A stretch of DNA of 34,517 nt from a virus (lineage: Duplodnaviria > Caudoviricetes). The translations under genes and the position numbers were made by a program. Each line of letters starts with the position of its first letter. Position 1 is the stretch's first letter. Shown piece by piece: positions 4,444 to 34,517 of the stretch. The notes under the pieces were generated by a model, which searched no databases, had not been told where the DNA came from, and saw only the letters and a list, made by a program, of their open reading frames with translations. The stretch spans positions 1 to 34,517 of the IMG/VR virus record IMGVR_UViG_3300006169_000165. One strand, written 5' to 3'.

Positions 4444-5076
4444 ATGTTCATTTTGGTTAACGGACCTTCACGCTCTAGTCTAGTCAAGTCTGTATCGCCT
4501 GTCAATACTTTGAAACCCCAACGATCCGAACTTGCCGAGGATATCCGCGTCCGCTTAGCCAGTCGGCTACAGCGGAAAGGGATCACGTACCGTGCAGCAG
4601 CGCGTGCGATCGGGGGGATTACGCACGCCGCCCTGCACAAGTACGTGGAGGGAGAGTCAATTCCGTATCGCCGAACGCTCGGGAGGATCGCGGATTGGCT
4701 AGACTCTACAGAAGAAACTCACGAAACAAACGATAGGGAAAGTGCTGGTGGTCAGGCGAGGGGCCGGGGCGACGGGGTAGTTACAATTTTGGCGGATCCT
4801 GCGTATAATAGGTTTTCGGGGGAAGAGCGGGTTGCGATCGATGCCGCACGTCGTCTCACCGAACGTCTCACAATGGCTTGGCGCCAAGGCCACTATGAGT
4901 CGTTGCAGAATCTGGTTGAGGACGCACGCGAGATCGCCCTCGGTTTTCACCCGGCCGGCCGGGGCTTTGTCGAGGCCTGGATCGTCGTTTTCCTCCCTAT
5001 GATCACTGATGCGACCGAACAATCGGCCGACGAGGCAGGGGTGCGCATTGCAGAGGCGCGTAAGCGCGCGGATTAA
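4444..5076 (+). CDS. XRE-family HTH repressor candidate
   Basis: LQRKGITYRAAARAIGGITHAALHKYVEGESIP…TLGRIADWL is an XRE HTH; divergent from early genes. Start uncertain (ATG 4444 or TTG 4510). No S24 peptidase domain visible. Confidence 0.8.
   Translation: MFILVNGPSRSSLVKSVSPVNTLKPQRSELAEDIRVRLASRLQRKGITYRAAARAIGGITHAALHKYVEGESIPYRRTLGRIADWLDSTEETHETNDRESAGGQARGRGDGVVTILADPAYNRFSGEERVAIDAARRLTERLTMAWRQGHYESLQNLVEDAREIALGFHPAGRGFVEAWIVVFLPMITDATEQSADEAGVRIAEARKRAD
4477..4505 (-). promoter_or_regulatory. Sigma70-type early promoter
   Basis: Minus strand TTGACA (4505-4500), 17-nt spacer, TAGACT (4482-4477), in an AT-rich patch; overlaps three tandem WAGTC units. Confidence 0.8.
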
Positions 5077-6355
5077 TCGTGCACGCCAGGACCTGCCCGC
5101 CCCCCTCCATGCGATCCAATCCGACCAGTTCGCTCCGCTGCTCGCGCGTAGAGGGGGCAGTATCTCGCACTCGTTGCTCCGACATTCCCTCCAAATCGGA
5201 CCGCGAGCCGATCGTAGCTGGACGATCAACCTGAGTCTCTTCAATGCGCCGATCGTCGATCGATACGCGTTTTTCTACGCTTATTCGCTCGCGAGCTGGC
5301 CAGACGAGGTTGACTCGACAGCGCATGACCTGTTTGCGGTGTCATGCGCCTTGGACGTCGTCTCAAGCAAGGACTTGGACGAAGATTGGTTTCGAGCCGC
5401 GGTGGAGTTGTCCGTTGCCCCCGGCCTGTGGACCGGCAGATCGCTCGATGATCTCCTTTGGCTTGCGTTCGGTGTGTGGGGCTCTAGGATGCTGCTTTCC
5501 TCCAGCGCGCTCTACGCGCTGGGGAGGCGCGCTCGCCGGCACTCCCTATTCGCAACGGCAGAGCACTTGTTGCGCCGCTCCATCGCCGGCTCGGCGCGAT
5601 CCGAAGATTGGGCTACGCATGTTCTTGCCCACCTCCCGCTCGCAGCGACTGCCGCTCAGCGAGGCAGGTACCGTTTCGCCAAACGCACGCTGGCGAAGGC
5701 GTTCCGTACCGCTCAGCGTCACGGGCTCTCAGCACTCCAGGGCGCTGTAGCTCACGATCAGTTCCTCCTCGCAATCGATCTCGGCGAGACCGGGCGCGCT
5801 GTGCAACTGGCGGAGCAAGCCCGGCTCCTGTACGGCCCGAGACACCCGTGGCTAGCTCGACTCGCGCATGATGTCGGCTACCACTGGATCTGCAGCGGGA
5901 AGTTTGAACAGGGGCTACCGTTAGTGCGACAGGCCGCACATCACTTCAGCGTAGCCGAAGAAAAGATGGTTGCGTGGGGTACCGTCGCCCGAGCTGCAGG
6001 TGCTCTCCGGGACCGACCGCTCTTCGAATTCTCGGTTGGTCGGGTGCAGTATCTCCGTCATCAGGCTGATACGGAGCACTTTGCGGCGGAAGCCAACCTC
6101 GGTCTGGCACGAGGAGCCGCCGCGTTGGGCGAGTGGGATGAAGGTGAGCACTTCGCGCGAGAAGCGCTCGCGCTTGCTACCCGGCGGAGGGAGTCGTTTG
6201 TGCGACTCGAGGCAGAGGCAGTGCTTGAGTCCGTGCGAGCGCACCGCGCCCTCGACGCGGTAACGGTCAGGAGATCCCCGTTGAACGGCCGAGCGGACGC
6301 CCTCGCGAGTGGACTAATTGCCGATCTCGGCGAGGGCGCCGCAGTGGTGGTCTGA
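5009..6355 (+). CDS. TPR-repeat protein (candidate peptide receptor)
   Basis: Successive helical repeats (ALYALG…AEHLLRRSI; LAHLPLA…GRYRFAKRTLAKA; VAHDQF…GETGRAVQLAEQA; LAHDVG…GKFEQGLPLVRQA; ANLGLA…GEWDEGEHFAREAL). Start uncertain because it overlaps the repressor by 68 bp. Confidence 0.85.
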   Translation: MRPNNRPTRQGCALQRRVSARINRARQDLPAPLHAIQSDQFAPLLARRGGSISHSLLRHSLQIGPRADRSWTINLSLFNAPIVDRYAFFYAYSLASWPDEVDSTAHDLFAVSCALDVVSSKDLDEDWFRAAVELSVAPGLWTGRSLDDLLWLAFGVWGSRMLLSSSALYALGRRARRHSLFATAEHLLRRSIAGSARSEDWATHVLAHLPLAATAAQRGRYRFAKRTLAKAFRTAQRHGLSALQGAVAHDQFLLAIDLGETGRAVQLAEQARLLYGPRHPWLARLAHDVGYHWICSGKFEQGLPLVRQAAHHFSVAEEKMVAWGTVARAAGALRDRPLFEFSVGRVQYLRHQADTEHFAAEANLGLARGAAALGEWDEGEHFAREALALATRRRESFVRLEAEAVLESVRAHRALDAVTVRRSPLNGRADALASGLIADLGEGAAVVV

Positions 6356-6401
6356 CGCGGGGGGGTCGGGTTAGGAAAAGCCCCCCCATTTGGGGATCCC
6401 G

Positions 6402-6659
6402 TCAGTTTCCCCCGCTGCCTACTCCACCACCCCCCTTTTCAGGAGGGCCGCTGTCGCTCTGGGTAGTGTAGCCTCCGCCGCCTCCGAAATCACGCACGCC
6501 GACGCTGTCGGCTACGACGTCGCGGCTGGGCCGTACCGTCTCATGGCGTGCGCCGACCGGGCCGTCCTCCGCCGCCGTCGAGCAACCGGCGACGACAGCG
6601 GCAGGGAGCGCCGCAGCCATCAGGATGACGAGCCGCTGCTTCCAATTGGGTTTCGACAC
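6402..6659 (-). CDS. Small secreted lipopeptide with Gly-rich C-terminus (candidate signalling-peptide precursor, 85 aa)
   Basis: GGAG RBS then GTG at 6659: MSKPNWKQRLVILMAAALPAAVVAGC (basic N-region, hydrophobic core, lipobox VAGC, Cys26)…RDFGGGGGY…EKGGGGVGSGGN*. Confidence 0.8.
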   Translation of the reverse strand: MSKPNWKQRLVILMAAALPAAVVAGCSTAAEDGPVGARHETVRPSRDVVADSVGVRDFGGGGGYTTQSDSGPPEKGGGGVGSGGN

Positions 6660-6740
6660 GGGGTTTTCTCCACAGGTTGGGGGGGGGCTGGAAAATGAGA
6701 TGGACGTCGTCAAACTTACTAGTCCAGCGAGGTTACTCCA

Positions 6741-7222: not shown

Positions 7223-7257
7223 AGGGCCTCGCACACCGCGAGGCCCTTTTTCGTTTT
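7223..7257 (+). terminator. Intrinsic terminator
   Basis: AGGGCCTCGC-acacc-GCGAGGCCCT 10-bp stem followed by TTTTCGTTTT. Confidence 0.88.
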
Positions 7258-7535: not shown

Positions 7536-7921
7536 TGGGGATCGAGATCCGGCGCGGGAGCTCCCGGCTCGTCCTGCTGATCGGCGCGTGGGCGCTGAAG
7601 CTCCCCCACCCGTCGAGCTGGCGGAGTCTCCTGTGGGGACTGCTCAGCAACCTCGCGGAGGCGGAGCGCCGGGGGCTGGAGGGCGCGTGCCCGGTGGTGC
7701 TGGCGCTGCCGCTCGGGCTGCTGCTGGTGCAGCGGCGTGCCGATCCGCTCCCCGAGGGCTTTCCGCTGGACGCGATCCCGGCCGCGGTCCGCGCACTCGC
7801 CGGCCACGACGGCGGCAAACTGAGCAGCTACGGGCTGATCCCCGGCCGCATCGTGGCAGTGGACTACCACGGCGACACCGCGCCGGTGGCGGGCACGACC
7901 CTCATCGAGCAGGCGGGCTGA
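7535..7921 (+). CDS. Minimal protein-kinase-like fold protein (128 aa)
   Basis: RGSSRLVLL…WALKLP…NLAE…LLVQRRADPL…HDGGKLSSYG…IVAVDYHG mirror kinase subdomains I, II, III, hinge, catalytic loop and DFG. Confidence 0.6.
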   Translation: MGIEIRRGSSRLVLLIGAWALKLPHPSSWRSLLWGLLSNLAEAERRGLEGACPVVLALPLGLLLVQRRADPLPEGFPLDAIPAAVRALAGHDGGKLSSYGLIPGRIVAVDYHGDTAPVAGTTLIEQAG

Positions 7922-8181
7922 TGCCAATCACGACGACTCCGCCGGCCGCGCCGGCGCCGCGGCACACGCGAGTGTGTGGTTGCTGCGACGGGTGGTGCCG
8001 GACGAAACCTAAGGACCTGTGCGTCCCATGCCGAAAGCTGATCGCGCTGGGGTCGGCCGCCTGCCCCACGTGCGGGAGCACGCCGGCCCGGCTCGGATAC
8101 CATGTCCGCGTACCGCGGCGGGGAGCGAGCGATAAGCAGTGGAGGCGTTTTCTCCGTCTGTTCGCCCCCCTGACCGCGTAA
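7921..8181 (+). CDS. Cys-rich small protein (putative zinc finger)
   Basis: CGCC, CVPC, CPTC; coupled stop/start at both ends. Confidence 0.7.
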   Translation: MPITTTPPAAPAPRHTRVCGCCDGWCRTKPKDLCVPCRKLIALGSAACPTCGSTPARLGYHVRVPRRGASDKQWRRFLRLFAPLTA

Positions 8182-8223
8182 TGCCAATGACGACGACTCC
8201 GCCGGCCGCGCCGGCGCCGCGGC
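7921..8223 (+). repeat. 43-bp direct repeat, 1 mismatch (7921-7963 and 8181-8223), at two consecutive start codons
   Basis: ATGCCAAT(C/G)ACGACGACTCCGCCGGCCGCGCCGGCGCCGCGGC encoding MP(I/M)TTTPPAAPAPR. Confidence 0.95.
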
Positions 8224-8690
8224 TCACCGACGATGAGCTGCTCCGGCAGACCCAGCGCTACGAGCGAGCGAAGCGGATCGAGGGATCGGTCAAGCGCCTG
8301 GCGGGCGAGTGCCAGCGCCTGATCGTCGGCGAGCTGGGCGCCCGCGGGGTCCGGGAGTGGGACGGCCCGGAGACGCACGTCACCGTGGTGTCGACCACGC
8401 GGACGACGGTGGATGGCGACCGGCTGTACGAGCTGCTGGGCCGTGGAGAGCGGGCCGCCGCCTATCGGACGGAGCACGACCTCAACGCGCTGCCGGAGGA
8501 GATCCGGGCGCGGATCCTCAACGAGCTGGCGCCCGCCGCCCGGCGTGCGATCACCCGGCGCGTGCTGGACCCGGCCGCCCTGGAGGCGGCGGTGGTGTCG
8601 GGCCGGGTGGCGGAGGACAAGGTGGCGGTCTGCAGCGCCACGACGTCGTCCGAGCCCTACGTCCGGATCAGCCACGGGCCGCGGCGCTGA
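8181..8690 (+). CDS. Hypothetical phage protein (169 aa)
   Basis: TAATG-coupled start; N-terminal helix followed by alpha/beta segment; strong GC3 bias. Confidence 0.8.
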   Translation: MPMTTTPPAAPAPRLTDDELLRQTQRYERAKRIEGSVKRLAGECQRLIVGELGARGVREWDGPETHVTVVSTTRTTVDGDRLYELLGRGERAAAYRTEHDLNALPEEIRARILNELAPAARRAITRRVLDPAALEAAVVSGRVAEDKVAVCSATTSSEPYVRISHGPRR

Positions 8691-8735
8691 GGCGGCGGCC
8701 AGTAGTCCCCCCCCCCACTCACAAGGGAGACGCAG

Positions 8736-9077
8736 ATGAAGATCAGGCTCAACGTGGAGCACCTGGAGGTGGAGAGCTTCGACACCGGCGGCGGCGACGG
8801 GATCGGGACGGTGGCGGCGCACCAGCAGTCGCCGCCGACCAGCGACCCGCAGACGGACACCGAGGATACGTGCCTCGGGCAGACGTGCATCGGGATGCAG
8901 ACGTGCGAGTCGGACGGGGTGGTGGGTGCGTCGTGCCAGGCGTGGTGCATGACCAACCTGCCGGAGAACACGTGCTACGACACCTGCCAGGGCTACCGCT
9001 TTACCTGCTCGCCCGGCTGCGGCGAGGGGGTGAGCATCGCCGCCAAGACGCACTGCGACTGCCCCCTGACCGCGTAA
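8736..9077 (+). CDS. RiPP precursor peptide, pinensin-like lanthipeptide leader with Cys/Thr-rich core
   Basis: AAGGGAG RBS; leader MKIRLNVEHLEVESFDT…GTVAAH; core has 11 Cys, six in Thr-Cys and one in Ser-Cys. Confidence 0.8.
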   Translation: MKIRLNVEHLEVESFDTGGGDGIGTVAAHQQSPPTSDPQTDTEDTCLGQTCIGMQTCESDGVVGASCQAWCMTNLPENTCYDTCQGYRFTCSPGCGEGVSIAAKTHCDCPLTA

Positions 9078-9164
9078 TCGCGGGGCGGGACGCGGGAAAG
9101 AAGGACGGATTCGGGCGCCTCCGTGTGACAGCGGAGGCGCCCCATGAGGAAGAGAGGATGGACC

Positions 9165-9620
9165 ATGGCGTGGAACCGAAGCGGGAGCTGGCGGCACCTG
9201 ACGCCGCTCGACGATCACCCGGGAGTGACGATGGTGCTGAGCGAGGACCTGCAGCGGGACCTGCACCACGCGGTGCGGCAGGTGGAGGAGGACGGCCGCG
9301 CGGTGGTGCGGCGGATCGAGGCGGCGCTCCCGCTGAGCGAGCGCCGGCGGATCCGCGTGCTGCTGGCCAAGCTGGAGGTCTTCGTGAGCGATGCGGAAAA
9401 GCTGCTCTTCCTGGGTGACGAGCCGGTCGATCGAGAGATCGAGGAGCTCAACGACAAGTTCGACGCGCTCTTCCTCCAGCGCGCCGAGCTGGACCGCGAC
9501 GCGCGCCGGATCCGGCGCGAGACGCAGAGCCTCGCGCTCGACCGGCGCGAGCTCCACAACCAGCAGAAGCTCGACGAGCTGGAGGTGATCGAGCGCCAGC
9601 TGCGTCCGCTGGGCGGATGA
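9165..9620 (+). CDS. Coiled-coil hypothetical protein
   Basis: Heptad-rich C-terminal half; start uncertain (9144, 9165 or 9231); ATGA overlap with the next gene. Confidence 0.7.
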   Translation: MAWNRSGSWRHLTPLDDHPGVTMVLSEDLQRDLHHAVRQVEEDGRAVVRRIEAALPLSERRRIRVLLAKLEVFVSDAEKLLFLGDEPVDREIEELNDKFDALFLQRAELDRDARRIRRETQSLALDRRELHNQQKLDELEVIERQLRPLGG

Positions 9621-14687: not shown

Positions 14688-14932
14688 ACGAGCAGAAGAT
14701 CCCGGGGGCGCTGCGCCGGCTGGTCCGCAGGCCGGCGTACAAGGACGGCAAGCCGGCCGGGACGCGGGAGATCGCGTCGAAGGAGGTGCTCGACTGGGCG
14801 GCGTCGGAGCGGGAGATCGTGATCATCACCGTCGACGGGCATCGCTACCGCGCGGACAAGCCGACGGGCAAGGCCGCGGCCAGCGCCAGCAGCGAGGACG
14901 ACGACGACGAGCGGGGCGGGGAGGAGTCGTGA
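14684..14932 (+). CDS. Small head-region protein (82 aa)
   Basis: GTGA-coupled at both ends, AAGGAG RBS; EVLDWA…IITVDGHRY. Confidence 0.7.
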   Translation: MNEQKIPGALRRLVRRPAYKDGKPAGTREIASKEVLDWAASEREIVIITVDGHRYRADKPTGKAAASASSEDDDDERGGEES

Positions 14933-17403
14933 GCACGGCGGCGCGCGCAGTAGTCGTCCTGCAGGCGGCGGATCTCACGCTCAGCGGCCGCGTCCGCGCC
15001 GTGGAAGACGCGCTCTACCGCCGCAACGAGCTGGCCCTGGGCGACGACCGGTGGTGGCCGGTCGAGGTGGCCGAGGACCACGTGCTCGCCCGCCGTGGCC
15101 CCAAGACCTACCGGGTAGGCTACACCATCGACGACGACGGTGCGGTCACGTTCGGCGAGGCGGCGGAGGTGGAGGCGCAGTACGTCCCGGTCACGGCGTC
15201 GGTCGCGGTGGAGCTGGACGGATCCGCGCTGCGCCTCACCGCGGCGGAGGCGGACGAGCCGGAGCCGACGGGCCGGGTCTGGGACGTGGTCATCGTGCGC
15301 GCCGGCCTGTCCAGCACCTACGCGAGCGTCGAGCGGGACGGCAAGACGGTCCAGCTGCCGGTGTTTTTCACCGACGAGTACGTGCGGCGCCTGGTCCCGC
15401 TGGTCGCGGACGCACCGGTGTACGCGCTGGACGACACCGCGTCGGGGCACAAGCTCGCCGCGGCGGACAAGCGGCAGGACCAGTCGGTGGGGTGGACGGC
15501 GGACCCGCGGTACGAGGCGGGTGCGTGCCTCGCGTCGCTCCACCTGGACGAGGGGAGTCCGGCCGCCGAGCTCAAGCGCGTGCAGCTGCTCTCCGCGTGG
15601 CGGCGCGGCAACCCCCGCCGGTTCGGGCTCTCGATCGATTCCCGGGGCACCGGCGAGATCCGGATGCACGCCGGCCGGGAGACGTACTACGCGACTGAGC
15701 CGGTCGCGCTGCTCAGCACGGATATCGTCCTCCGCCCCGCCGCCGGCGGCGGATTCACCCAGCTGGTCGCGAGCAGTCGCGGCCCGCATCACACGGAGAT
15801 GGAGATGACTCGGGATCGTCTGATCGCGGCCATTCGCGCGAGTCGGCCGCAGCTGCTGGAGGGCAGGGACCTGGCGACGATGACGGTGGGGGAGCTCGCC
15901 GCGCTCGCCAACGAGGCGGAGCTCCGCGCCGCCGCGACCGCACCCGCGCCGGCCGCCGCGGCCGCCACGCCGGTGGACGTCACGGCGATCACCGCCCAGG
16001 TGACGGCCGCCGTGACGGAGTCGCTCACGGAGAGCATCAACCGCCGGCGCGCCATGGAGGCGGTGATCACCGCCTCGCAGTTGCCCGCGAAGGCGCAGGC
16101 GGCGCTCCGCGCCGAGATGGACCGGGCGGGCGCGACGGTCGAGACGGTGCAGGCGGCGGTGGACGCGCAGCGGGAGATCCTGGCGGAGGCGGTGCAGAGC
16201 TCCACGCACGTGCTCGGACTGGGCGGCCCCGCGCTGCAGGGCGCCGGCACGGCGGCGGGGCAGGTGTTCGTGGGCGTGGATCCGATCGACCGGGTGCAGG
16301 CGGCGGTGGACCGGGCCTTCGGCCTCGAGCCCGAGGATCCGCAGCTCCGGACGATCGCGCCGCTCGGGCTGCAGGCCGCGTGGAACGTGCTCACCTGCGG
16401 CCAGGACCAGAGCGTCATGGGGAGCATGGGCGCGCGCGAGATGCGGATCATCCAGGCCGCGGGCTTCGACACGACGACGCTGCCGGACGTGCTCGCCAAC
16501 ACGATGGGGCGCAGGCTCGCGGCGGACTACGCGGAGCTGAGCTACGGCGACGAAAACCTCGTCTCGACCGAGGGCAGCATCAAGGACTTCCGGCCGCAGA
16601 CCGCGATCCGGCTCGGGTACCTGGGGACCTTCGGGACCGTGGACACGGACTCCGAGGACTACCCGGAGGTCAACGCCTACGGCCAGGAGCGCGCGATCTG
16701 GGAGCCGGAGGAGAGGGGGCTGATCATCAAGGTCACGCGCAAGCACATCATCAACGACGACCTGGACGCGGTCAAGAAGATCCCCGACCGGATCGCCCGC
16801 GCGGCGCGGCGGACCGTTTCGGAGTTCGTTTTCGACTTCTTGATCTCGAACCCGGTGCTGAGCCTGGAGACGGGCGACACGCTCACCTGGTTCCACGCCG
16901 ACCGCAACAACCTCCTGACGGGCGCGCTCTCGATCACGGCGCTCAACACGGCCCGCCTGGCGCTCGCCAACCAGCAGGAGCCGGACAGCGGGAAGAAGCT
17001 GGGGCTGCGGAAGAACGTGCAGCTGCACCTCTACGTGCCGCAGGAGCTGGGCGACCTCGCGCGCTCCATCAACCAGAGCCAGCTGGTCCCCGGCAGCGCC
17101 AACAACGACGCCAACCCGTGGTGGAAGAAGTTCGGCGTGAACGACGAGTACATCCACGAGGTCTACCCGTGGAACGATCCGACCGACTGGGCGCTCGCGG
17201 TGGAGCCGAAGGAGCGGGAGATCATCGAGCTCAAGTACCTCAACGGGCAGAAGGTCCCGCAGATCGTGCGGCAGGACGCGCCCGGCGTCGGCGAGATGTT
17301 CACCCGCGGCGCGCTCAGAATGAAGGCGTACTTCGATTTCGGCGGCACCCCGATCGACTTCCGCGGGATCGTCAAGTCGGTGGTCGCCAACCCGGAGCCC
17401 TGA
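14929..17403 (+). CDS. Fused prohead protease-scaffold-major capsid protein (Mu gpT-like capsid)
   Basis: 824 aa: protease-like N-terminus (GHKL…VGW…FGLSIDS…TDIVLRPAAGGGF), Ala-rich scaffold, capsid domain (IKDFRPQ…KVTRKHIINDDL…FHADRNNL…IDFRGIVKS). Confidence 0.9.
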   Translation: MSTAARAVVVLQAADLTLSGRVRAVEDALYRRNELALGDDRWWPVEVAEDHVLARRGPKTYRVGYTIDDDGAVTFGEAAEVEAQYVPVTASVAVELDGSALRLTAAEADEPEPTGRVWDVVIVRAGLSSTYASVERDGKTVQLPVFFTDEYVRRLVPLVADAPVYALDDTASGHKLAAADKRQDQSVGWTADPRYEAGACLASLHLDEGSPAAELKRVQLLSAWRRGNPRRFGLSIDSRGTGEIRMHAGRETYYATEPVALLSTDIVLRPAAGGGFTQLVASSRGPHHTEMEMTRDRLIAAIRASRPQLLEGRDLATMTVGELAALANEAELRAAATAPAPAAAAATPVDVTAITAQVTAAVTESLTESINRRRAMEAVITASQLPAKAQAALRAEMDRAGATVETVQAAVDAQREILAEAVQSSTHVLGLGGPALQGAGTAAGQVFVGVDPIDRVQAAVDRAFGLEPEDPQLRTIAPLGLQAAWNVLTCGQDQSVMGSMGAREMRIIQAAGFDTTTLPDVLANTMGRRLAADYAELSYGDENLVSTEGSIKDFRPQTAIRLGYLGTFGTVDTDSEDYPEVNAYGQERAIWEPEERGLIIKVTRKHIINDDLDAVKKIPDRIARAARRTVSEFVFDFLISNPVLSLETGDTLTWFHADRNNLLTGALSITALNTARLALANQQEPDSGKKLGLRKNVQLHLYVPQELGDLARSINQSQLVPGSANNDANPWWKKFGVNDEYIHEVYPWNDPTDWALAVEPKEREIIELKYLNGQKVPQIVRQDAPGVGEMFTRGALRMKAYFDFGGTPIDFRGIVKSVVANPEP

Positions 17404-32252: not shown

Positions 32253-34517
32253 ATGGGACGGCAGACGCCGATCATCCGCACGCACCTCCACCGCCTTCGC
32301 CGGCTCCGCGGCGCGGGCACGGCGGTGCTGCTGGCGGTCTGCGTGGCCTGCGGCGGGGCGGACCGGGCGCCGGCGCCGACCCTCGCGGACACGGAGCTGG
32401 CGCGGGCGTGGTCGGAGGTGCGCGGCCTCGCCGGGACGGCGGCGGATTCGCTCTCGGACGAGCAGGTGATCACCCTGGGATACGTGGAGCGGCTGCGGCT
32501 GGGCCTGGGAAGCCCGTTCCGGCTGATGGACTTCGCGCTGCAGGATCCGCGGCTCACCCCCGCGGCGCGCATCCGGGCCGCGGCGGCGATGCTGCAGGCC
32601 ACGCGCGAGGGCCGCGCGTACGCGGTGGATGCGCGCGCGCTGGCTGCGCTGGGCGCGGATGCCGCCGGGCGCACGGCGGCGCGGGCACGGATGCACCGGA
32701 CGCTGATCGACCGCGCCGTCCGCGAGGCGGAGGACCCGCGCGAGGGAGAGCTGGCGGTTCGCGCCGCCTACCAGCTGGCGGCGGCGGAGAACCTGGTCGC
32801 GCAGCACGCGCCCACCCTCGCCGCGCAGGCGGCGGCGCTGGCGCGCGACCGGGTGCTGGCGCGGCGGGACGCGGAACGGCTGCTCGCCGTCGCGGACAGC
32901 GCGGGCCGCCACCCGCTCGCCCTGCTGCGGGAGTGGCGCGCGGAACGACGCTTCGAGGTGGAGGCACCGACCGGCGCCGGATGGCCGCCCCACCTGGAGG
33001 TGAACGCGTCCTCGCTCGCGCTGCCGCTGGCGGCGCGGGTGCGTGCCATCGCGGAGGGCCGCGGGGCGCTGGAGCGGGAACGCGTGCCGATTCCGCACCT
33101 GGCCCCGGAGGTGGCGCGGCGCCTCTCCACGCTGGCACGGGAGCAGGACCCGCCGCCGAGCGCGCCCATCCAGGTCACGCTGGACCGCTACGCCGCGGAG
33201 CTCAGGCGCACCGCGGGCTCGCGGAGCGGGCGGACGGCGGTGGAGGGGCTGATCGCGCGCGGCCGAACGGAGGAGCGCTTCGCGGCGGAGCTTGCGAGGC
33301 TGCCCGCCGCGGACGACCCGAACCCCACCGTGGCGATCGTGGAGCTAGAGGCGGCGGTCGCCCTGCGGGCGTACGCGCAGGAGGCGGTGTGGTACCCGGG
33401 CTTCTCCGCGCCGACGGTGGCGGACCTCAAGCGGAACTACGGGCTGGCGGCCGTGCGCTTCGACGAGGACATACCGCTGCACTGGCGCCCGTACTACCGG
33501 CGGATGCTCGGCGAGTCGCTGGCGGACCTGGAGTCGGTGCTCCCGGGGCTGGACCTGCACGGCCTCTCCTTCCGCTTCGGGCGGACGGGGCGCGAGGGGA
33601 GCGCCATCGCGGTGCACTTCCCCGGGCCGCGGGTCATCCACCTGCCGCCGGGGACCGGGCCGGGAACGATCGCGCACGAGGTGGCGCACGACCTGGACTG
33701 GCAGGTGGCGCGCACCCGCTACGGCCGGCGCGGCGTCTACGCGACGGACCTGGCGATGGACGGCGATCACGCGGACCTCTTCGCCGCGGCGGTGCGGCAG
33801 CTTCCGCTGCTGGCGGCGCCGCGCGCGGGGCCGGAGGGGCGTCGCGCCGAGACGCGCCCCGCGGAGGCGTTCGCGCGGCTGTTTGATGGATACGTGACCT
33901 CCATCCTCGCGGCGCGGGGCCGCGGCAACGGCTACCTCTCGTCACTGCAGGACGAGGTGCTCACCGGCCACGGCACCGCCGTCGCGCCCGACGCGCACGG
34001 GGAAAGCGCGGAGGCGTTCCTCCCGCTGCTGATGGTGGCCGCGCCGCTCACACCGGCACAGCAGGCGGACTTCCGGCTGCGCTGGGGGGCGGGACGCGCG
34101 CCCTCGCCGCTGAGCCTGCTGGCGGACGTCGCCGATGCCGCCCGCCCGGACGCCGCGCCGCCTTCCCGTCGCCCGTGGCGCAGCCTGGCGGACCGGGGAA
34201 GCCTGGACGATGCGGTGCGCGCGCGCATCGCCGAAGTCGATCGCGCGCGGGAAGAGGCGCTGCGCACCCGCGTGGCGTCCATCTGCGCGAACCCCTTCCT
34301 CTCCGCCGGCGCGGAAGGAGAGGCCGCCGTCCGCGCGCTGGTGAACGCCGCCGCAGACGCGCGGATCGACGCGATCCTGCGCCGCTTCGCGCGGAGTCGC
34401 GGCATCGGCGCGGAGCCGGACGCCCTCCGCGCCGCGTGGCTCCCCGCCGACCGTCCTTCCTCCCCCGCCATCTCCCTCACCTGCGAGGGAGCTACCCCGC
34501 AGCAGCCATCGGAGTAA
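32253..34517 (+). CDS. Host lipoprotein with HExxH zinc-metallopeptidase-like motif
   Basis: Signal peptide ending AVCVAC; TIAHEVAHDLDW and a downstream RPAEAFAR; outside the predicted phage end. Confidence 0.75.
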   Translation: MGRQTPIIRTHLHRLRRLRGAGTAVLLAVCVACGGADRAPAPTLADTELARAWSEVRGLAGTAADSLSDEQVITLGYVERLRLGLGSPFRLMDFALQDPRLTPAARIRAAAAMLQATREGRAYAVDARALAALGADAAGRTAARARMHRTLIDRAVREAEDPREGELAVRAAYQLAAAENLVAQHAPTLAAQAAALARDRVLARRDAERLLAVADSAGRHPLALLREWRAERRFEVEAPTGAGWPPHLEVNASSLALPLAARVRAIAEGRGALERERVPIPHLAPEVARRLSTLAREQDPPPSAPIQVTLDRYAAELRRTAGSRSGRTAVEGLIARGRTEERFAAELARLPAADDPNPTVAIVELEAAVALRAYAQEAVWYPGFSAPTVADLKRNYGLAAVRFDEDIPLHWRPYYRRMLGESLADLESVLPGLDLHGLSFRFGRTGREGSAIAVHFPGPRVIHLPPGTGPGTIAHEVAHDLDWQVARTRYGRRGVYATDLAMDGDHADLFAAAVRQLPLLAAPRAGPEGRRAETRPAEAFARLFDGYVTSILAARGRGNGYLSSLQDEVLTGHGTAVAPDAHGESAEAFLPLLMVAAPLTPAQQADFRLRWGAGRAPSPLSLLADVADAARPDAAPPSRRPWRSLADRGSLDDAVRARIAEVDRAREEALRTRVASICANPFLSAGAEGEAAVRALVNAAADARIDAILRRFARSRGIGAEPDALRAAWLPADRPSSPAISLTCEGATPQQPSE

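Follow-up and report, generated by a model that had tools for sequence, protein, structure and literature searches.

In the prochlorosin system, many scattered precursors are served by one promiscuous class II LanM synthetase, ProcM. The ProcM idea is also mentioned in the available sections of PMC11118758, in which Gao et al. link host RiPPs to phages via co-expression and describe no phage-encoded precursors. The pinensins of Chitinophaga pinensis, with two rings and antifungal activity according to the accessible part of PMC10125368, have a split LanB in common with the Longimicrobiaceae cluster described below, as far as the available portion of Walker et al. (10.1101/2020.03.13.990614) goes; the same portion assigns an LxLxKx5L motif and a double-Gly end to Bacteroidetes class I leaders. 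RiPP cargo on temperate phages is represented by sublancin, a bacteriocin whose cluster is borne by phage SPbeta (excerpts of 10.1101/2020.10.01.322628), and by the lanthiphage clusters found on prophages (excerpts of 10.1101/2024.06.26.600839). The available excerpts of PMC8692599 and PMC11251773 contain nothing specific.

Here we analyze a putative lanthipeptide precursor gene in the window, a 34,517-nucleotide stretch of viral DNA that makes up a provirus record in IMG/VR and is some 45% complete. The family to which it belongs shares with the prochlorosins a conserved leader, hypervariable cores and precursors distant from the enzyme, but in Longimicrobiaceae the enzymes are a class I split LanB and LanC rather than a class II LanM, the leader is another one, the library is larger and one member sits in a prophage. 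Compared with the pinensins, the window peptide has up to 11 predicted rings and lacks the double-Gly end, while the Longimicrobiaceae cluster combines an ABC transporter without peptidase domain with an S8 protease and a LanC carrying a TglI-like extension. Sublancin on SPbeta and the lanthiphage clusters are likewise RiPP cargo on temperate phages; judging from the excerpts cited, however, these carry the precursor together with its enzymes, whereas the visible window prophage carries the precursor only. No earlier description of a precursor-only lanthipeptide gene on a phage, or of the Longimicrobiaceae library, was found in the literature searched, which mostly excluded subscription journals; the precursor tables of Walker et al. 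may be relevant to this negative result.

The precursor gene and its core

The precursor ORF, at 8,736 to 9,077 on the plus strand, encodes 113 aa and is a genuine gene. As claimed in the first-pass annotation, it is preceded by a ribosome binding site: a purine-rich stretch at 8,723 to 8,729 (plus strand), read from the sequence, lies 6 nt before the ATG and after a C-rich tract, an arrangement that by eye resembles host precursor genes at their 5' ends (40 host rows). GC3 is 0.96-0.97, against a host-precursor median of 0.95. Scans of the peptide against Pfam, NCBIfam and PHROG gave no match and the precursor is a singleton in its own 90% cluster, as would befit a shadow ORF in GC-rich DNA; this reading is nevertheless very improbable in view of the ribosome binding site, a GC3 of 0.97, a leader match above chance and hundreds of family members, and is effectively refuted by the leader score relative to controls.

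Residues 1 to 29 (8,736 to 8,822, plus strand) constitute a leader of the Longimicrobiaceae precursor family, as judged from an HMM of 81 host leaders. The remaining 84 aa (8,823 to 9,077, plus strand) form the predicted core, the boundary being placed at the family's conserved leader end. This core is acidic (10 D/E, 2 K/R) and holds 11 Cys, 12 Thr and 6 Ser, so that Cys is accompanied by enough Ser/Thr (18) for a class I precursor. The first-pass annotation had described 11 Cys mostly in Thr-Cys or Ser-Cys units spaced 4-8 residues apart; the number holds, as does the preceding Thr or Ser for 8 of the 11 Cys, but only 6 of the 10 spacings (5, 6, 10, 4, 9, 4, 7, 4, 12 and 2) are within 4-8.

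A single-sequence homologue search with the peptide recovered nothing besides itself, a PDB sequence search gave no match, and phmmer returned one true relative. Three more phmmer matches proved to be repeat-protein artefacts and the single match to a GenBank phage a chance hit. ESM Atlas look-alikes are, among the matches listed, Gemmatimonadota clusters. The core has no orthologue in 71 family genomes, although short motifs are common to it and host cores.

A leader family of Longimicrobiaceae

A DNA pattern derived from the leader, searched in GTDB, identified 77 loci, all in Gemmatimonadota and nearly all in Longimicrobiaceae, which yielded 82 peptides with a common leader and variable Cys/Ser/Thr-rich cores. 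The leader HMM was built from 81 of these, one peptide with an unclear start being left out. The window leader scores 39.4 bits on this model; 40 of 206 host leaders, 81 of which trained the model, score at or below that value. Since the search pattern had been built to match the window leader, the ten leader residues upstream of it were scored separately; they reach 22.3 bits on a host-family matrix, a score attained by 1 of 150,861 control 10-mers. The leader thus fits the host-family HMM beyond chance, which supports the earlier proposal of a lanthipeptide-type precursor.

The same cannot be said of its assignment as an established pinensin leader, which was overstated. When RiPP precursor families were searched, as had been suggested, the window peptide did not match NF038180 (leader_pinensin; model cut-off 24 bits) at E ≤ 10, whereas 58 of the 81 host relatives match at E ≤ 0.1 and 23 fail. 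The window leader also lacks both the LxLxKx5L motif and the double-Gly end of Bacteroidetes class I leaders, from which the family consensus differs as well. Databases name family members 'pinensin family lanthipeptide [Longimicrobium sp.]'. Taken together, the score of the window leader, the NF038180 matches of its relatives and the database names identify the peptide, on sequence grounds, as a divergent member of the Longimicrobiaceae 'pinensin family lanthipeptide' precursors. What it shares with the NCBI family is the leader; it differs in being unmatched by the model, in being prophage-borne and in having a core among the longest.

A search of 301 genomes sampled from the phylum gave leader matches in 4. 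Among viral contigs, two sets of candidate stretches (3 and 71) contained no confirmed family precursor; of 82 viral-contig pattern matches, visual inspection covered the 30 short in-frame ones and revealed the leader in none of these.

Each of five genomes examined contains from 49 to at least 149 same-leader genes, with two of the counts approaching the scoring cap, and these genes are mostly distant from enzymes: a synthetase is encoded within the locus in 3 of the 77 host loci. With 1-3 matches to the family LanB per genome, many scattered precursors correspond to each synthetase in these relatives, the hallmark of a dispersed library. Of the 206 host members, 8 have cores of at least 84 aa, read-through artefacts accounting for two of these 8. 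A genome note on L. terrae lists three lanthipeptide clusters but no family product (PMC7291104), and no description of a product or modification of any leader-family member was found in the literature searched. Two host loci deserve separate mention. One (L130) contains tandem precursors with 26-28 Cys, including runs of seven consecutive Cys, which exceeds what lanthionine rings alone allow. In the other (L206:7421-9783), a stand-alone second LanC lies between two leader-family precursors, with no LanB within the 18-kb region.

A class I enzyme cluster with the same leader

In all five genomes, a split LanB (PF04738 and PF14028) and a LanC are encoded along with an HlyD protein and an ABC transporter that lacks a peptidase domain; an S8 protease adjoins the cluster in two. 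In three of the five, same-leader precursors lie inside the LanB_N/LanB_C/LanC/ABC/HlyD (+S8) cluster. Leader-family precursors thus adjoin LanB/LanC clusters and one stand-alone LanC, and at the loci examined none was found beside LanM or LanKC. The transporter lacks the N-terminal C39 peptidase part of the Bacteroidetes type, and an S8 protease is present. Among 71 Longimicrobiaceae genomes, the family LanB occurs in 36 of 39 leader-positive and in none of 32 leader-free genomes, although these genomes are related and incomplete and hence do not amount to 71 independent tests. All 34 genomes with six or more leaders have the enzyme; the three leader-positive genomes without it have 1-2 leaders.

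The zinc-ligand motifs of LanC are kept. Its C-terminal extension of ∼240 aa (L205:2979-3692 and homologues) is predicted to fold like TglI/DUF2063 with an RRE (pLDDT 84; Foldseek E 5e-7 to the leader-binding protein TglI). When the phage leader was docked on this domain, using that of genome G005 as a stand-in, ipSAE was 0.46 against 0.00 for the best control, with a contact agreement of at least 72% and a partner pLDDT of at least 52. In the docking benchmark, 116 of the 157 solved pairs reached the mark, as did 2 of the 215 mismatched ones; of these, only 18 solved pairs and both mismatches had scores at or below 0.60. As complexes similar to that of leader and LanC domain have already been solved, the score may come from model memory, and the docking weakly supports binding.

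The check proposed on the host side, a list of same-leader precursors and their synthetases, was therefore informative: relatives hold from 49 to at least 149 leaders together with a class I cluster. This cluster is a plausible cognate set for the phage precursor. Apparently, one class I split LanB and LanC with a fused leader-binding domain serves up to at least 149 precursors, making the family enzymes a candidate for a highly promiscuous cyclization tool.

These data also bear on whether the peptide is modified by thioether chemistry at all. A role in metal binding or as a disulfide peptide, with the product left unmodified or subject to other chemistry, would agree with the acidic, Cys-rich composition and with the lack of any library match, and the long Cys runs of some family cores (L130) cannot all become lanthionines. 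However, Cys counts show no bias to even numbers (103 of the 203 host cores have an odd count), and Ser plus Thr equal or exceed Cys in 185 of 203, both of which are in line with thioethers rather than disulfides. Given also the tight co-occurrence and co-location with LanB/LanC and an AlphaFold model without confident fold (pLDDT 55, pTM 0.20), we regard an unmodified or otherwise modified product as quite improbable.

A Mu-like prophage of a probable Longimicrobium host

The placement of the precursor in a prophage was borne out. Positions 1 to 31,790 belong to a Mu-like transposable prophage, as judged from a DDE transposase with Mu C-terminal domain (left, cut off), MuF, head-tail genes and adjacent host DNA; an HTH repressor, terminase, portal, protease-capsid and tail genes are also present. 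Core genes align in single frames to the prophage of genome G002. No homologue of LanB, LanC, LanM, LanKC, ABC, HlyD, S8 or peptidase-ABC was detected in the window (tblastn, E ≤ 0.01; the positive control matched), nor any radical SAM homologue, confirming the earlier statement on maturation enzymes for the visible prophage; because the left end of the record truncates the transposase, a few early genes fall outside view. The region of the G002 prophage likewise contains neither enzymes nor transporter.

The host gene to the right of the prophage (32,253 to 34,517, plus strand) is 71-74% identical to its counterparts in three genomes (G047, G032 and G036), all of which carry LanB and from 97 to at least 114 leaders. 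Close terminase relatives (47-66%) were identified in 5 of the 71 Longimicrobiaceae genomes; among 401 genomes of the class, the 2 with such relatives are both Longimicrobiaceae. A metagenome search did not recover the host contig and gave one other prophage. The host is likely a Longimicrobium bacterium, and from the genomes nearest by the flanking gene we infer that it carries the LanB/LanC cluster.

Gene context and a likely recombination scar

The precursor lies between a phage gene at 8,181 to 8,690 and another at 9,144 to 9,620 (likely start 9,165), both on the plus strand, the latter followed by genes for a small hydrophobic protein and for both terminase subunits, the small and the large. 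As the two flanking genes abut directly in two related prophages (G002 and G047), the precursor is an insertion. An exact 17-nt copy of 8,166 to 8,182 is found at its end (9,062 to 9,078, plus strand), a repeat of a kind seen in 1 of 1,000 shuffles, and consequently the precursor and the upstream ORF at 7,921 to 8,181 end with identical last codons and stop. This repeat is likely a recombination scar. The start of the upstream ORF copies the first 47 nt of the next gene, and the two repeats around this ORF indicate microhomology shuffling. The ORF itself encodes a Cys-rich, basic 86-aa protein, zinc-ribbon-like by eye and without Pfam match.

A 12-bp GC-rich hairpin without U tail lies 3' of the precursor (9,113 to 9,142, plus strand; z −2.4, 5 of 200 shuffles). 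It was rejected as a capture signature, hairpins of similar strength being present after host precursors but also after other phage genes. A terminator-like stem with a T run, seen in the sequence at 7,223 to 7,247 (plus strand), precedes the rightward gene block in which the precursor lies. Between 6,300 and 10,600, no sigma-70-type promoter was found, which suggests read-through from the rightward operon, and the precursor is likely transcribed with it.

Carriage among related prophages

Among 10 distinct related prophage records, three of them partial, two hold a precursor, namely the window and the G002 prophage (1 of 9 excluding the window). The suggested look into related prophages accordingly gave a mixed answer, with another precursor in G002 and none in the 8 other records. 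The G002 gene (L226:12297-12668) lies in the early operon on the other strand, co-oriented with it and behind an early gene, and encodes 124 aa with a 93-aa core and 11 Cys (GC3 0.80); its leader scores 19 bits on the family HMM. The window and G002 cores are not related to each other (rank 156 of 326), which points to independent captures and to the lack of a conserved phage function. A phage-specific core subfamily was considered and rejected (z 0.8).

For the six prophages whose hosts are known or inferred, host density predicts about 1.4 precursors, compared with 2 observed (P for two or more = 0.42); over these six, no enrichment above host density was found. A benefit to the phage, as proposed earlier, draws no support from this agreement. 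It is instead what would be expected if the process that scatters precursors (50-150 genes per chromosome) had dropped one in a prophage as a neutral passenger, perhaps modified if expressed but of no use to the phage. In the same direction, the G002 carrier sits in a precursor-rich host while prophages in hosts with 0, 2 and 17 leaders have no precursor, neither slot nor core is conserved between the phage copies, both phage leaders have drifted (39 and 19 bits), and the 5' end and GC3 are host-like. Against it, each copy is intact and co-oriented, follows closely on a phage gene and has its own ribosome binding site, the 3' end of the precursor matches a phage repeat, and the prophage core genes look unbroken. 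Both phage cores, moreover, are among the longest few percent (84 aa or more each), a post hoc signal with n = 2. On balance, a neutral passenger strikes us as unlikely, though a contender to be taken seriously.

Probable maturation in trans and possible roles

We tentatively prefer, at a little short of an even chance, the reading that the gene is functional cargo, a host-type precursor matured in trans by host enzymes that the phage lacks. Such maturation in trans is itself likely. The first-pass annotation had drawn the borrowing of host enzymes from the orphan status of the gene; a plausible cognate class I set does exist in the inferred host clade, but orphan status is the family norm (3 of 77 loci).

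According to this preferred reading, the precursor was likely captured from the host's scattered library. The leader-binding (RRE-like) domain fused to the host LanC, together with the split LanB, would bind the leader; Ser and Thr would be glutamylated and then eliminated, and up to 11 Cys would add to the dehydrated residues to form (methyl)lanthionine rings. The ABC-HlyD pair might subsequently export the peptide and the subtilisin-like protease of the cluster cut off the leader. At a cost of ∼390 bp, the phage would thus obtain an unusually long, acidic, polycyclic peptide, likely released in phage growth and acting extracellularly, in competition or signalling, rather than as an antibiotic that lyses membranes. 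The acidity of the core speaks against a membrane toxin of the classical kind, and the toxin or lysis role suggested earlier fits such a core poorly. That the phage copy is expressed, matured in trans and exported, and that it has a function, is what we infer. If matured in trans, a complex natural product would be specified by one 340-bp phage gene, which cluster-based mining would miss.

Alternatively, the long multi-site precursor might be a decoy that is overproduced in lytic growth and occupies LanB/LanC or the exporter, stopping host lanthipeptides of which some are possibly anti-phage. The gene lies within a phage operon and no separate promoter for it was found, which is consistent with this, as is the bottleneck that a single enzyme set for many precursors would create, and anti-phage class I lanthipeptides exist in Actinobacteria (excerpts of bioRxiv 10.1101/2024.06.26.600839). 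A strong leader would suffice for a decoy, yet most host leaders outscore those of the phage copies, and the phage cores are fully modifiable; nor is an anti-phage role known for the leader family. We therefore consider a decoy improbable.

A bolder extension of the cargo reading is that Longimicrobium transposable phages repeatedly capture precursors from the host library, integrate them into lytic operons and favour extra-long cores, the host's single promiscuous LanB/LanC turning the present one into an 11-ring peptide. We consider this extension doubtful. If true, phages would be parasites that at the same time serve as couriers for a natural combinatorial library of peptides, with 100 or more members per genome, and phage carriage might let scattered precursor libraries pass from one host to another.

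Other features of the prophage

The region from 4,462 to 6,660, in which GC is lower, contains an HTH repressor-like ORF (weak HTH_3), followed by a gene for a TPR protein and a convergent small ORF. The TPR protein (5,009 to 6,355, 448 aa) has a counterpart in the G002 prophage (43%) and relatives in host loci, and the small ORF (about 6,402 to 6,660, minus strand) has a signal-peptide-like start. This region is possibly a peptide-sensing lysis/lysogeny module. Further downstream, 14,929 to 17,403 encodes a fused protease-scaffold-capsid protein of 824 aa that is kept in related prophages.
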